44,283 bases of DNA. Origin: Escherichia phage B2. Under the pieces are notes generated by a model, which was not told the DNA's origin, made no database searches, and was given only the letters and a program-made list of their open reading frames with translations. Shown here piece after piece: positions 3,051 to 43,276 of this stretch. The stretch is from sequence record NC_073069.1, one strand, 5' to 3'. Position 1 is the first letter of the stretch, and every line of letters begins with the position of its first letter. Position numbers and translations under genes: made by a program.

Positions 3051-4475
3051 ATGGCAAGATTCCGACGTCGCGAATATCAGAAGTTGATAACCGCGTTCAT
3101 CCTCAAGCATAAGCGATGCAATATCTGGGCGACAATGGGGTCGGGTAAAACTGGCGCGACCATGTGGGCACTGAATAAAATGTTCCAGACTGGTATCCTG
3201 TCCAACCGGGAGGACCGCGTACTGGTGCTGGCCCCGCTGCGCGTTGCGTCCGGTACATGGCCCCCGGAGCAGGAGAAATGGCGCTTCCCCGCCCTGCTGG
3301 TAGTAGACGGCACAGGGCCAGAGAAGGACCGCATTGCTGCGCTTGAGAGCGACGCTAACGTGGTTTGTGTTAACTATGATGTGGTTGAGTGGCTGGTTGA
3401 CTATTACGGCGCTGCGTGGCCCTTTACGGTCGTTGTTGCCGACGAATCCACTAAGCTGAAAGGCTATAGAAGCAAGCAGGGGAGTAAGCGCGCCCGCGCA
3501 CTGGCGGCGATTGCCCATAAGCACGTCAAGCGCTGGATTAACCTTACCGGCACACCCGCGCCAAACGGACTGAAAGACCTGTGGGGTCAGACGTGGTTTG
3601 TCGATGGTGGCGAACGCCTCGGCAGTAGCTATAAGGCATTTACGGATCGCTGGTTTATTAGCAAGCCTGTTAAGCCTGGCAGCTTCACTATGCAGCACGC
3701 CCCGCTTAAGAACTCCGAGAAAGAAATACAACAACGCCTGTCTGACGTATCGCTCACCGTTGATGCGGCTGAATACTTCGGATGTGACAAGCCAATCTAT
3801 ACGCCGGTTGTTGTGGACCTGCCGAAGAAAGCCCGCAAGATTTATGACCAGTTCGAAGCGGAGCTATTTGCCGAACTGGAAAGCGGAACGGTGGAGGCGG
3901 CGAACGCTGCTTCGAAGACCATTAAGTGCCTTCAGCTTGCTTCCGGGGCCGTGTATAAGGTCGACGAAGACGGCGAACGGACCGACGAATGGGTGAAAAT
4001 TCACGACGCTAAACTGGACGCGCTGGAAAGTATCGTGGAGGAGTTGAACGGCGCACCGTTGCTCGTCGCATACCAGTACAAGCATGACCTGGCGCGTCTC
4101 AGGAAGAAATTCCCGCACGGCGTAGCGATGGGTAAGGGTAAGCAAGGCAATAAGGATATGGAAGCGTGGAACAGGGGCGAGATCCCCATCATGTTTGCGC
4201 ACCCCGCATCGGCGGGTCACGGCCTTAACTTGCAGGATGGCGGACACCACCTTGCTATCTTCTCAGACACCTGGAACTATGAGCACTTTGCGCAGATCGT
4301 GGAGCGTATCGGGCCAGTTCGCCAGATGCAAGCCGGACACCCTCGTCCCGTATTCGTCTACATTATCCAGGCGCGCGGCACACTGGATGAACTGGTCGCA
4401 GAGCGTCGAGACAGTAAGCGAGATATCCAGGACGACCTGATGGAATACATGAAAGCTAAAAAGGCGCGCAAGTGA
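3051..4475 (+). CDS. SNF2/DEAD-like superfamily 2 helicase
   Basis: Walker A GSGKTGATM, motif II VVADESTKLK, C-terminal HPASAGHGLNLQ; start trimmed to the first ATG after the upstream stop. Confidence 0.85.
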   Translation: MARFRRREYQKLITAFILKHKRCNIWATMGSGKTGATMWALNKMFQTGILSNREDRVLVLAPLRVASGTWPPEQEKWRFPALLVVDGTGPEKDRIAALESDANVVCVNYDVVEWLVDYYGAAWPFTVVVADESTKLKGYRSKQGSKRARALAAIAHKHVKRWINLTGTPAPNGLKDLWGQTWFVDGGERLGSSYKAFTDRWFISKPVKPGSFTMQHAPLKNSEKEIQQRLSDVSLTVDAAEYFGCDKPIYTPVVVDLPKKARKIYDQFEAELFAELESGTVEAANAASKTIKCLQLASGAVYKVDEDGERTDEWVKIHDAKLDALESIVEELNGAPLLVAYQYKHDLARLRKKFPHGVAMGKGKQGNKDMEAWNRGEIPIMFAHPASAGHGLNLQDGGHHLAIFSDTWNYEHFAQIVERIGPVRQMQAGHPRPVFVYIIQARGTLDELVAERRDSKRDIQDDLMEYMKAKKARK

Positions 4476-5167
4476 TTATATGGTCATTATTTGACGGCAG
4501 CGGCTTGATGATTGAGCGTGCTGCCGAGATGGGGCATAAGTGTTATTGCTTCAACTACTCCGAAGCCGATCACGGGTCTTACCTTGATTACCGGATCTAT
4601 GGGCGCGGTATCCGATATCGTAATGAGTTTATCGATCTGGACTTCGTGGACCGCGCGATGAATGGTGATTTCGGCACGCCGGATATCATTTACGCATTCC
4701 CGCCGTGTACGGATCTGGCGGTTAGCGGTGCGCCAGCTTTCCCGCGCAAACGCGCCCGCGACCCTGCCTTCCAGCTTAAGGCAGTGCGCACCGCGAAGAT
4801 AGCCGCTTACCTGGGTGATTTCTTCGAAGTGCCGTATATGATTGAGAATCCGCGCAGCGTGCTCTCCACTCAATGGCGTAAGCCGGACCACTCGTTTGAC
4901 CCGTGGGAGTATGGCGGCTATTTGCCAGAGGATGACGTACACCCGTTATTCCCTGAATACATCAACGCCCGCGATTCATATCCGAAGCTGACCTGCTTAT
5001 GGACCGGCAACGGCTTCCGTATGCCAGAGAAGAAACCTGTTTTCGTTGAAAAAGGGTACTCGAAACAGTATAGTCGCCTCGGTGGTAAATCCGCTCGTAC
5101 AAAATTAATCCGCTCACTCACCCCGCGCGGCTTCGCGATAGCGGTTAACGAGGAAAATTTAAAATGA
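4472..5167 (+). CDS. DNA (cytosine-5)-methyltransferase-like protein, unusually short
   Basis: GTG start overlapping the helicase stop; motif I-like LFDGSGL, PC motif FPPCTDLAVSG, ENV-like MIENP; only 231 aa so no obvious target recognition domain. Confidence 0.5.
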   Translation: MIIWSLFDGSGLMIERAAEMGHKCYCFNYSEADHGSYLDYRIYGRGIRYRNEFIDLDFVDRAMNGDFGTPDIIYAFPPCTDLAVSGAPAFPRKRARDPAFQLKAVRTAKIAAYLGDFFEVPYMIENPRSVLSTQWRKPDHSFDPWEYGGYLPEDDVHPLFPEYINARDSYPKLTCLWTGNGFRMPEKKPVFVEKGYSKQYSRLGGKSARTKLIRSLTPRGFAIAVNEENLK

Positions 5168-5487
5168 ATACTACATTCGACGCCATCGACTTTTCAGTGG
5201 CAATGACCAATCAGCTTTTTTCCTACGACAGCAAGACCGGCGTCATTCGCCTGAAGTCCACAGGCTGCAAGATTGGCAACCTTAACACTGCCGATGGCGG
5301 AACACGTATCGAATACAACGGTAAGACGCTGTCTGGCGCACGCGTGGCGTGGATTATTGAGACAGGCAATACAATCCCCCCAGGCTTCGCCGTTGTGTGC
5401 CGCCAGCGCACGCCAGGGCACTACGGCAACCGGATCAGCAATCTGTATCTGGTAGACGTAGCGCGCGACCCAAACTTTTATGCGTAA
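5164..5487 (+). CDS. HNH_3-like domain protein with substituted catalytic histidines
   Basis: ATGA start/stop overlap; ARVAWIIETGNTIPPGFAVVCRQRTPGHYGNRISNLYLV follows the HNH_3 pattern but has AR and CR where the conserved His residues are expected. Confidence 0.4.
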   Translation: MNTTFDAIDFSVAMTNQLFSYDSKTGVIRLKSTGCKIGNLNTADGGTRIEYNGKTLSGARVAWIIETGNTIPPGFAVVCRQRTPGHYGNRISNLYLVDVARDPNFYA

Positions 5488-5520
5488 ATTGGTTGCATAA
5501 TCATATTGGTTGCATTATAT
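5488..5520 (+). promoter_or_regulatory. tandem ATTGGTTGCA motifs followed by TATATT
   Basis: attggttgca at 5488-5497 and 5505-5514, upstream of the 5569 gene. Confidence 0.4.
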
Positions 5521-5568
5521 TGAGGGTGTCCGGTTTGGACGCCCTTTTTAATACCTGGAGACAACACG

Positions 5569-6033
5569 ATGAAAATTTTACAAGAAGAGAAAAATTACTG
5601 GGCCGCGCAATGCCTCGAAGCCCGCGAGCAAACGGCCAACGCGAAACAATCGGCCGAAATCTTCCGGTCAGGTTATGAAACGGAAGAAAAGCGTCGCATG
5701 GAGTTAGAGGAGCGCTTCGAACTGCTATTCGAACTGATGGGGATTATGCAGCGCACCGGATACACCACCAGCGTTGCACTAAACCGCATCACTGCCGACG
5801 GGCTGCGTGAGCATTGCAAACGGGCCGAGGAGTACGTGCGTCCGAAGGGCCGCCAGTCTTCGATCGCCCGGAAAGACCTTGTGCTCATGGCGTGGCGCAA
5901 CCCTACAAACGGCAGCATCTACCCAGACGCGCGCCCGCTTAGTGCCGAGGAATCAAAGCGCGTGCAACGCATTCTCAAAACCGGCAATAAAATCGCCCTG
6001 TATGCGATAGACACCGACCATGCAGAAGAGTGA
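5569..6033 (+). CDS. hypothetical protein
   Basis: 154 aa ORF with ggaga SD upstream; no recognised motif. Confidence 0.45.
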   Translation: MKILQEEKNYWAAQCLEAREQTANAKQSAEIFRSGYETEEKRRMELEERFELLFELMGIMQRTGYTTSVALNRITADGLREHCKRAEEYVRPKGRQSSIARKDLVLMAWRNPTNGSIYPDARPLSAEESKRVQRILKTGNKIALYAIDTDHAEE

Positions 6034-6505
6034 GCAAAAAGATAGCTGGCGCACGCCGCCAGCTTTATTTAAACCGCTGCGCCGGAAGTACCGATTCCGT
6101 TATGACATGGCGGCAAGCGACGCCAACCATCTGCTACCGCGTTACTTCACGGCAGAGCACAGCGCGCTTGAGGTGGACTGGTCAGAGTTGAAAGGGTGGA
6201 AGTGGTGCAACCCGCCGTATTCCGATCCGCTGCCGTGGGTTAAGTGCGCAGCGCACGGACGCCGGACCGTCATGCTACTGAATCAGGACACGTCGACAAA
6301 GTGGGCGCGGTTGGCCCGGAAGACTGCAAACCTGATAATTCTTCTGGACTGGCGGATCCGATTTATACATGCCGTCACCGGTGAAGTCGGGCCGAGCAAT
6401 AACAAGTGCCAGCAATTGATAATCTTTGGCGAAGCGCCACCCATCGGCAGCGCACAAATTGAAATAATGAGCGAAGGAGAACTCCTTGAATATCTTAATC
6501 GTTGA
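6020..6505 (+). CDS. phage Dam-type DNA N6-adenine methyltransferase
   Basis: WRTPPALF near N-terminus, DMAASDANH, and catalytic NPPY (WCNPPYSD); characteristic small phage Dam family. Confidence 0.8.
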   Translation: MQKSEQKDSWRTPPALFKPLRRKYRFRYDMAASDANHLLPRYFTAEHSALEVDWSELKGWKWCNPPYSDPLPWVKCAAHGRRTVMLLNQDTSTKWARLARKTANLIILLDWRIRFIHAVTGEVGPSNNKCQQLIIFGEAPPIGSAQIEIMSEGELLEYLNR

Positions 6506-6710: not shown

Positions 6711-7177
6711 AATTACTGATTTGCGATTTGGATGGCGTTATTAACGGTTCAAGCGATGCGCGTGCCGACTTGGTGCCTGGCATAAAAACTAAATCCACCT
6801 TTTGGGCGAAGTGGCACAAAGCGCACGTCCGCGAAGACCTGAACATGGATATGCTGCCGCTACTGCGCATGTATAAAGAGCAAGGCTTCGAGATCGCGTA
6901 TCTGACCAACCGGCAGCGAGAATGTTGGGACACCACCGCCGAGCAATTGGAGGTCTTCCCGGTAGGCCGGTTGTTTATGCGCCACATGTTGGACGACACC
7001 CCGCCGCCTGAGTTTAAAGCGTGCGCCGTGTTCAAAATGGTATGTTACGCGGACGTGTCTGAACTGGTCATCATTGAAGATTGCGAGAAGAACATCGCGG
7101 CAATTCGTCGGGCGTGTGGTGATTTGGTCCCGAAAATTTACGCAATAAACGTTGCAAAATTCACTTGCAACCAATAG
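6707..7177 (+). CDS. HAD-superfamily hydrolase-like protein (putative phosphatase/nucleotidase)
   Basis: ATGA overlap start; HAD motif I LLICDLDGVI, YLTNR and a later acidic motif IIEDCEKN. Confidence 0.5.
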   Translation: MKLLICDLDGVINGSSDARADLVPGIKTKSTFWAKWHKAHVREDLNMDMLPLLRMYKEQGFEIAYLTNRQRECWDTTAEQLEVFPVGRLFMRHMLDDTPPPEFKACAVFKMVCYADVSELVIIEDCEKNIAAIRRACGDLVPKIYAINVAKFTCNQ

Positions 7178-7196
7178 GTTGGTTGCACTATAGTAA
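7166..7196 (+). promoter_or_regulatory. perfect inverted repeat TGCAACCAA-tagg-TTGGTTGCA followed by TATAGT
   Basis: 9-bp arms at 7166-7174 and 7179-7187 spanning the stop of the HAD-like gene, upstream of the 7242 gene. Confidence 0.4.
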
Positions 7197-26390: not shown

Positions 26391-26418
26391 TTGGTTGCAG
26401 TATATTGGTTGCACACCA
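26391..26418 (+). promoter_or_regulatory. tandem TTGGTTGCA motifs upstream of the + strand moron cassette
   Basis: ttggttgcagtatattggttgcacaccaaca; the 18-nt ATTGGTTGCACACCAACA also occurs upstream of the 37075 gene. Confidence 0.45.
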
Positions 26419-33998: not shown

Positions 33999-34031
33999 AT
34001 TGGTTGCAGTATGACCCCTGTGTTGGTTGCG
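33999..34031 (+). promoter_or_regulatory. ATTGGTTGCA motif and a second TTGGTTGCG copy
   Basis: attggttgcagtatga at 33999 and ttggttgcg at 34023, both + orientation, inside the leftward late region just before the 34042-34067 hairpin. Confidence 0.35.
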
Positions 34032-37096: not shown

Positions 37097-37137
37097 TGCA
37101 ACCAATATAGCAGGGTGCGGGGGTGGGCGCAACCAAT
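37097..37137 (-). promoter_or_regulatory. two ATTGGTTGC motifs upstream of the 37075 gene
   Basis: On the minus strand ATTGGTTGCGC...ATTGGTTGCACACCAACA then SD and ATG. Confidence 0.45.
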
Positions 37138-37498: not shown

Positions 37499-37614
37499 GG
37501 CAACCAATACGACCGACTAAAAGCACGCAAAATGGCAACCAATGCGCGCAGAATTTAATCATTTACCGATATGGGGATCCCCATAACGGCAACCAATGCA
37601 CGCAAAATTTAATC
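37499..37614. repeat. GGCAACCAAT direct repeats flanking a 16-bp perfect palindrome
   Basis: 30-bp repeats at 37531-37560 and 37585-37614 (27/30 identical), a third core copy at 37499-37508, palindrome tatggggatccccata at 37570-37585; overlaps the primase stop. Confidence 0.6.
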
Positions 37615-43186: not shown

Positions 43187-43276
43187 CCACCCAGGCGCAA
43201 CCAAGTAGATTAGCAACCAAGCCGAACGGGGTGGCTCACAATAACCCCGATACATGTGAAACTGAGGAATTGGAAA

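Follow-up and report, generated by a model that had tools for sequence, protein, structure and literature searches.

The window analysed here, the whole 44,283-nucleotide stretch of Escherichia phage B2, is the complete genome of a Dhillonvirus, an HK578-like coliphage. Behind a SNF2-family helicase gene and a 231-aa gene annotated as a methyltransferase it carries a short open reading frame (Table 1), which is gp07 of Dhillonvirus. The same coding sequence is annotated in phages HK1, YD-2008.s and CEC_Kaz_2018 and is labelled in these and many other records, about 150 public genomes in all, as a "(putative) HNH endonuclease" or a "homing endonuclease". The surrounding region (4400-6100) shares 97.7% identity with Escherichia phage HK1, and it matched 156 phage records. 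A GAGGA sequence at 5150-5154 lies 9 nt 5′ of the gp07 start, and the start codon overlaps the stop codon of the 231-aa gene in the sequence ATGA (5164-5167), which suggests translational coupling such that translation of gp07 is probably linked to that of the gene upstream. Counted from its sequence, the encoded protein has 11 K/R to 8 D/E and so is mildly basic.

In every lineage carrying a gp07-type gene, this gene comes right after the SNF2 helicase or is parted from it by the methyltransferase-annotated gene. The 231-aa gene occupies this intervening position in most Dhillonviruses but not in Shigella phage EP23 (L038), in which the gp07-type ORF lies about 8 nt past the helicase. In EP23 and in the metagenomic lineages P0006 and P0008 the gp07-type gene is right behind the helicase or is separated from it by a small ORF alone, with the same succession seen in Edwardsiella phage eiAU, in L022 and, after a 60-aa ORF, in L024, while in eiAU the methyltransferase gene comes after the HNH-like gene. 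On this gene order the methyltransferase-annotated gene was rejected as a functional partner of gp07. No Pfam or NCBIfam match was found for the 231-aa protein and no Pfam match for the gene downstream of gp07. Folding of the RNA 3′ of gp07 identified a GC-rich hairpin followed by a T-run, at a place equivalent to that of an annotated terminator in phage PTXU06, although a simple consensus terminator scan did not list it. With this hairpin behind it gp07 appears to close the early helicase operon as its final cistron, and the structure is the likely terminator of a transcription unit made up of the helicase, methyltransferase-annotated and HNH-like genes. Pairs of TTGGTTGCA repeats were also observed to be strongly over-represented, one pair, at 5489/5506, lying immediately past the gp07 stop codon.

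Table 1. Coordinates of the genes, signals and protein segments discussed in the text (positions in the window).
Feature	Position	Strand	Basis or remark
SNF2-family helicase gene	3051..4475	+	Precedes the gp07-type gene in every lineage carrying one
231-aa gene annotated as C5 cytosine methyltransferase	4472..5167	+	Annotations
Ribosome-binding site GAGGA and ATGA start/stop overlap of gp07	5150..5167	+	Sequence, ORF coordinates
gp07 of Dhillonvirus, CDS of a 107-aa HNH_3-like protein	5164..5487	+	ORF list; ATG start, stop TAA at 5485-5487
N-terminal beta-sheet domain, residues 19-57 (YDSKTG hairpin, GGTRIEYNGK)	5218..5334	+	AF2, alignment
A59-R60-V-A-W63, counterpart of I-HmuI H56-R57 in the HRxaW family motif, Ala in place of His	5338..5352	+	Alignments
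V78-C79, end of strand beta1 (I-HmuI D74-H75)	5395..5400	+	HMMER, MAFFT
P84-G85-H86-Y87, 2-residue beta-hairpin insertion (P84-G85) followed by a conserved His	5413..5424	+	Alignments
N89-R-I-S-N93-L94, retained NRxxNL core (I-HmuI N83...N87-L88)	5428..5445	+	Alignments
Residues 99-107 (VARDPNFYA), short non-helical tail	5458..5484	+	AF2, end of profile match
10-bp GC-rich hairpin and T-run, likely intrinsic terminator	5522..5549	+	RNA fold

The HNH_3 spacing pattern reported in the original prediction is present in gp07 exactly as given there. The match to the Pfam HNH_3 model (PF13392) is weak, scoring 13.1 bits against a gathering cut-off of 24.8 and aligning only profile positions 5-21 of 46, such that gp07 fails the threshold over the full 46-position model. 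PHROG 99 (HNH endonuclease) matches gp07 with E=2.3e-16. An exhaustive HMMER search of 1.84 billion representatives, using a profile built from Dhillonvirus sequences alone, reached intact HNH_3(+AP2) proteins at E=5e-5 to 7e-4. Conversely, a profile of eight intact HNH_3 domains, I-HmuI included and degenerate sequences excluded, matched gp07 alone in a six-frame translation of the whole genome (E=3e-13), and hhalign aligned the Dhillonvirus and intact profiles with 98.4% probability (E=1e-14). Among its structural neighbours in BFVD the orthologues of gp07 are followed by phage HNH, homing-endonuclease and AP2 proteins. The I-HmuI structure 1U3E was reached by the family profile but not by gp07 as a single sequence, which had no match among PDB sequences, in NCBIfam or in the plasmid collection. 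Word-indexed searches returned nothing beyond close relatives or known members of the degenerate clade described below, with the exhaustive HMMER search needed to reach intact HNH_3 proteins. Taken with the PHROG, HMMER, hhalign and BFVD results, gp07 shares ancestry and fold with the Pfam HNH_3 / I-HmuI family, as had been supposed.

Mapping of gp07 onto I-HmuI, numbered from the 1U3E alignment, was agreed by HMMER and MAFFT. The first segment of gp07 in Table 1 aligns to I-HmuI residues 16-55, the N-terminal globular domain of that enzyme, with AF2 strands at residues 19-21, 28-30, 46-51 and 54-57 and with Y21, T25 and G26 invariant across all homologues. The catalytic residues of I-HmuI are D74, H75 and N96 (PMC12724721). 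In gp07 the metal ligand D74 is replaced by V78 (R, T or V in orthologues) and the general base H75 by C79, while hhalign, in a slightly shifted register, placed a gap opposite the His, and none of the HMMER, MAFFT or hhalign registers supplied a His at the catalytic position. Of the two catalytic histidines said to have been substituted, the loss read as CR is therefore genuine (C79 for H75), whereas that read as AR concerns A59, the counterpart of I-HmuI H56, a family position that is not catalytic and is Ser in one otherwise intact domain (the second domain of P0014); the adjacent R60, equivalent to R57, is retained. Also retained, as N93, is the central structural Asn of the H-N-H motif (I-HmuI N87), with N93-L94 invariant in all homologues and R90, N93 and L94 invariant in the degenerate clade. 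Thirteen residues follow N93-L94 before the chain ends. The AF2 model has strands at 75-79 and 94-98 and then no helix, and alignment with the intact profile extends no further than position 91/115, short of the N..N helix, from which it follows that the alpha-helix bearing the metal ligand N96 is missing. Nothing lies beyond residue 107 in the way of a C-terminal AP2, NUMOD or HTH module, and no AP2 or HNH_3 remnant was found elsewhere in any frame of the genome.

The same degeneration is seen in a small clade consisting of Dhillonvirus, the Edwardsiella phages eiAU and eiDWF (gp31) and four metagenomic lineages, P0006, P0008, P0015 and L041. The proteins of eiAU/eiDWF, P0006, P0008 and P0015 are only 37-41% identical to gp07 and each has lost the catalytic dyad, with VRC, VTC, IRP and VVC respectively in place of xDH, while the closer orthologue L041, in which the helicase is 80% identical, reads ITL...PGHY. 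The hairpin insertion with its conserved His is shared by gp07, eiAU gp31, P0006 and P0008 and is not present in P0015; the motif is PGHY in Dhillonvirus, L041 and P0006, IGHY in eiAU and STHA in P0008, such that His86 is kept in every lineage that has the insertion. Beyond the finger the lineages differ, with an HTH-like tail kept in P0008 and an AP2-like one in P0015 where gp07 has neither, the C-terminal DNA-binding module being lost in Dhillonvirus, eiAU and P0006 alike. In addition, eiAU gp31 carries an N-terminal NUMOD-like fragment or extension (E=0.0019), a stray piece that indicates endonuclease debris at the locus downstream of the helicase.

This pattern bears on whether gp07 could still be a nuclease in which the active site has been rebuilt, with His86, possibly Cys79, N89/N93 and D102/N104 standing in for the Asp-His...Asn arrangement. 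The persistence of His86 (GHY/THA) in all five helicase-linked lineages at 37-40% identity speaks for such a site, as do the retention of N89, R90, N93 and L94 and the position of D102 and N104, which fall roughly where N96 would be. Yet both residues of the Asp-His dyad are lost together with the helix that bears the second metal ligand, neither D102 nor N104 is kept in eiAU or P0006, and position 79 is occupied by Leu in L041 and by Pro in P0008, on which account Cys79 was rejected as a replacement catalytic or metal residue. We know of no beta-beta-alpha-metal nuclease in which the general base has moved into the hairpin loop. With the metal ligands gone, Cys79 variable and only His86 conserved, a rebuilt site is very unlikely, and the divergent active site entertained in the original prediction finds little room. 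Conservation of His86 within a lineage-specific hairpin insertion is an observation that a dead-remnant model leaves unexplained.

Comparison of seventeen Dhillonvirus alleles indicates that the gene is under strong constraint. The gp07 frame is intact at 106-107 codons and of the same length in 16/17, with EP23 starting three codons later, while VVCRQRTPGHYGNR and V78-C79...G85-H86-Y87-G-N-R are each invariant in 17/17. The median dN/dS of gp07 (Nei-Gojobori, 118 pairs with dS>0.05) was 0.043 compared with 0.023 for the neighbouring 231-aa gene. By tblastn gp07 was found at ≥80% identity in 156 phage records and the helicase at ≥90% identity in 156, and these matching totals are consistent with gp07 being a single-copy core gene of Dhillonvirus. 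Its position is always the same, lacking the patchy presence and variable insertion sites of a mobile homing endonuclease gene, and gp07 appears to be a fixed component of the genus, having divergent counterparts in Eiauvirus and a few uncultured relatives. The sole disrupted copy seen was a frameshift in SSL-2009a. In phage PTXU06 a second place considered as a possible intact HNH gene was rejected, since it comprises a tandem duplication of the methyltransferase-annotated gene and a truncated 67-aa copy of gp07.

The loss of the catalytic residues and C-terminal domains, the frameshift in SSL-2009a and the truncated extra copy in PTXU06 could be taken to mean that gp07 is a functionless remnant heading for deletion. 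A dN/dS close to that of the neighbouring gene, a frame shared by the alleles, the equal totals for gp07 and helicase and the single disrupted copy all led to rejection of a pseudogene, and the conservation of the gene across genera, its good Shine-Dalgarno sequence and its coupled start make such a fate barely credible. Rather, with catalytic residues lost under purifying selection and the gene conserved across genera, gp07 is most probably a domesticated pseudo-nuclease.

The slot behind the helicase is differently occupied in related phages. The helicase is about 70% identical between the genera that have a gp07-type gene. At 60-80% identity it was also found in about 500 other phage records, most of them from Salmonella and Escherichia phages and one named Kagunavirus, among which only four Edwardsiella phages have a gp07-type gene and about 496 do not. 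Given so many phages with an orthologous helicase and no gp07-type gene, this replication module does not in general depend on the gene. Similarly, twelve IMG/VR loci with a 45-68%-identical helicase had no HNH-like ORF within 2.5 kb. No intact HNH paralogue was found in any frame of the source genome, whereas the intact gene sought at the same locus in relatives was recovered in the IMG/VR locus L046, where a 163-aa ORF (L046:1807-2295) lies directly past the stop codon of the orthologous SNF2 helicase. Its pattern is complete (HR...DH...DNR...NLR...N..N), with 42.3 bits to Pfam HNH_3 over positions 1-46 and a sub-threshold AP2 match of 18.7 bits. In L047 a similar intact HNH_3 gene is located upstream of the helicase, scoring 58.6 bits over positions 1-46. 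The L046 protein reaches only 13 bits against the Dhillonvirus profile compared with 36-43 bits for other intact HNH_3 proteins; it is not especially close to gp07, was not supported as its direct ancestor and points instead to a slot in which such elements have landed repeatedly.

The close attachment of gp07-type genes to the helicase, always directly or one gene behind it, raises the question of a protein-protein adaptor, in which the dead HNH fold docks onto the SNF2 helicase, onto a different protein involved in replication or recombination, or onto a host factor. Loss of the C-terminal DNA-binding module in Dhillonvirus, eiAU and P0006 is in keeping with a function of this kind. However, the helicases of the roughly 496 phages noted above (including the loci viewed as L043-L058) manage without such a partner, and the disparity between a helicase that is about 70% identical between genera and a gp07-type protein that is just 37-40% identical gives no sign of tight co-evolution, which leaves the adaptor an unlikely explanation.

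The intact HNH_3+AP2 genes near the helicase in relatives, after it in L046 and before it in L047, also suggest a role in anti-homing or competition, whereby the dead domain would recognise the target of intact HNH_3 invaders and so block cleavage or super-infection by competitors. Such a role would account for strong constraint at the protein level without catalytic residues. The proposal is purely inferential, the intact L046 gene is only distantly related, and an occupied slot already destroys the insertion-site target such that no protein is necessary, and it is accordingly rated as quite improbable. The broader notion that gp07 now serves in specific DNA recognition, acting either as a regulator on the TTGGTTGCA repeat pairs or as an anti-homing shield, is improbable also, though if true it would be a clear case in which a phage has made a DNA-binding regulator or defence factor out of a selfish nuclease.

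The explanation that we consider probable overall is a dead, domesticated HNH_3 remnant serving as a nucleic-acid- or partner-binding accessory protein. That gp07 is such a remnant can be held with considerable confidence, in agreement with the inactivated and retained homing endonuclease first proposed, since His and Asp are replaced, the helix is missing, the gene is under purifying selection and an intact HNH_3 gene fills the same slot in L046. Its most likely ancestor is a free-standing HNH_3 homing endonuclease, whose gene would have inserted between genes just behind the SNF2 helicase and then lost its activity and been domesticated. The product retains its beta-sheet domain at the N-terminus and both strands of the beta-beta-alpha-metal finger and, with dyad and helix lost, would no longer cut DNA, acting instead as a small basic nucleic-acid- or partner-binding accessory protein in early phage DNA metabolism.

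How this accessory protein would act is a more tentative matter. The C-terminal AP2/HTH-type module normally provides homing endonucleases with most of their DNA affinity, and as it is missing from the Dhillonvirus form, DNA binding by gp07 may be weak or absent. That gp07 works by binding DNA, the role for which the original prediction supposed it to be retained, is plausible, though less likely than not. The preferred mechanism is one in which gp07 would bind through its retained I-HmuI-like N-terminal domain, by analogy with AlphaFold3 models of active I-HmuI-like enzymes in which this domain lies in the major groove (PMC12724721). Literature searches found no biochemical or genetic data on gp07, and in the literature on Dhillonvirus escape mutants (Retron-Eco7, Retron-Eco2 and OLD) it was implicated in none.

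In GenBank and RefSeq, gp07 is named an "HNH (homing) endonuclease" in over 100 Dhillonvirus records. As the residues needed for cutting are lost this label is functionally misleading, which affects for example safety or "mobile element" assessments of therapeutic coliphages. In related phages the slot downstream of the helicase is vacant, filled by an intact HNH_3+AP2 gene or filled by a truncated dead copy that is strongly conserved, and these different states offer a natural example of the late life cycle of a homing endonuclease. In addition, a 107-aa pseudo-nuclease that is apparently a core gene of a well-studied and genetically tractable coliphage genus (HK578 and the Dhillonviruses of the BASEL collection) is an easy target for learning what roles such remnants take on.

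Set against known systems, gp07 departs from I-HmuI, the HNH nicking homing endonuclease encoded in an intron of Bacillus phage SPO1 (PDB 1U3E), in being free-standing and fixed, neither intron-borne nor patchy. It has V78-C79 for D74-H75, two extra hairpin residues and no N96 helix, with the C-terminal DNA-binding half of I-HmuI (residues ~100-174) wholly absent. The best-scoring intact homologues found are free-standing phage HNH_3+AP2 homing endonucleases (for example L046:1807-2295, P0011 and P0016), enzymes of a type that keeps HR, DH, DNR, NLR and N..N together with AP2 and passes the Pfam threshold at 42-59 bits, where gp07 has neither the catalytic residues nor AP2 and fails. On these sequence comparisons gp07 belongs by descent to HNH_3/I-HmuI and is without the features that define a functional member, namely the Pfam score, D74, H75, the N96 helix, the DNA-binding tail and mobility. 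Homing-endonuclease derivatives that have lost catalysis are already known, an example being WhiA, a transcription factor of bacteria that uses a LAGLIDADG homing-endonuclease scaffold from which the catalytic residues are absent. WhiA differs from gp07 in having the LAGLIDADG and not the HNH fold, in keeping an HTH DNA-binding domain and in having a demonstrated function; the likeness, by analogy, is that of a homing-endonuclease fold which has lost catalysis and is conserved for another role.

Intact HNH_3 genes, which keep the catalytic residues including the Asp-His dyad and encode a C-terminal AP2 DNA-binding module, were found beside the SNF2 helicase gene in two relatives with helicases 66-68% identical, lying directly downstream of the helicase gene in one (L046) and upstream of it in the other (L047). 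The occurrence of such genes on either side of the helicase gene in these relatives suggests that free-standing HNH homing endonucleases land repeatedly in its flanks.

The orthologue of the HNH-like gene in Edwardsiella phage eiAU, gp31, is extended at its N-terminus, and the extension weakly matches the I-HmuI NUMOD-like element (PF22083, E=0.0019, residues 8-27). In homing endonucleases this element is as a rule C-terminal, so that the extension may be the debris of a second endonuclease joined by in-frame fusion. Other HNH_3 architectures were encountered among the metagenomic proteins recovered with the Dhillonvirus profile of the HNH-like protein, with P0014, P0018, P0013 and P0012 each having two HNH_3 domains in tandem. 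The Asp-His dyad is lost from the first domain of P0014 and P0018, whose second domain is intact, so that, judging from these sequences, degenerate HNH_3 domains also exist as partners of active ones. The central part of the domain (profile positions ~36-81) is matched in 13 separate stretches of P0010 (1644 aa) and five of P0017 (1195 aa), two very large proteins that look like arrays of repeated modules resembling the HNH_3 N-terminal part.

Coordinates of features at and around the HNH-like gene and its relatives
Feature	Sequence	Coordinates
Intact HNH_3+AP2 gene	L046	1807-2295
Intact HNH_3+AP2 gene	L047	893-1375
eiAU gp31	L003 (Edwardsiella phage eiAU)	3860-4315
231-aa gene (annotation: 'DNA cytosine C5 methyltransferase')	window	4472-5167
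Next gene after the HNH-like gene	window	5569-6033
Compared interval for the 243-nt ORF insertion	window vs L002 (YD-2008.s)	5488-5568 vs 3726-4049
TTGGTTGCA pair after the HNH-like gene	window	5489-5497, 5506-5514
Other TTGGTTGCA sites	window	7166-7187, 10283, 26391-26413, 34000-34031, 36565, 37097-37136, 40391
Related 1-mismatch copies of TTGGTTGCA	window	37499-37596, 43196-43220

The 231-aa methyltransferase-annotated gene, for which Pfam and NCBIfam searches gave no match, starts with GTG in the window and with ATG in relatives. In Shigella phage EP23 the helicase and HNH-like genes are not separated by it, and phage PTXU06 has a tandem duplication of it that includes a truncated copy of the HNH-like gene. 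On the 3′ side of the HNH-like gene, YD-2008.s, SSL-2009a, BF9 and others carry an extra 243-nt ORF (EpYD_08, hypothetical) before the next gene, which some records label 'DNA ligase', a label given no support by Pfam and NCBIfam.

The stop codon of the HNH-like gene is immediately followed by a pair of copies of the 9-mer TTGGTTGCA, which occurs 11 times exactly in the window against ~0.3 expected for an exact 9-mer, and 23 times with at most one mismatch against 11.9 ± 3.0 in shuffles. The copies are mostly paired, direct or inverted and closely spaced, lying within or beside intergenic regions, with a -10-like hexamer 3′ of several of them; TTGGTTGCA is a candidate for a promoter or operator motif of the phage.

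Close matches to the Dhillonvirus locus were found in records labelled Campylobacter phage A144 (MG065648.1), Acinetobacter phage NJ01 (OQ221563.1) and Salmonella phage Kenya-K19 (OQ291023.1), with identities of 95-96% for the HNH-like protein (A144, Kenya-K19) and ~91-92% for the DNA of the locus (NJ01, Kenya-K19). These records may carry wrong host labels or derive from contaminated isolates.

Phage HK1 is closer to the window locally (97.7%) than CEC_Kaz_2018 is. Escherichia phage CEC_Kaz_2018 (NC_073070.1) and the window have identical length (44283 nt) and identical gene coordinates, with 4030 mismatched positions (9.1%) in a gap-free position-by-position comparison across the whole window, most of them apparently at third codon positions. 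For two sequences 9% divergent, colinearity without gaps is unusual; it may reflect a reference-guided consensus assembly.
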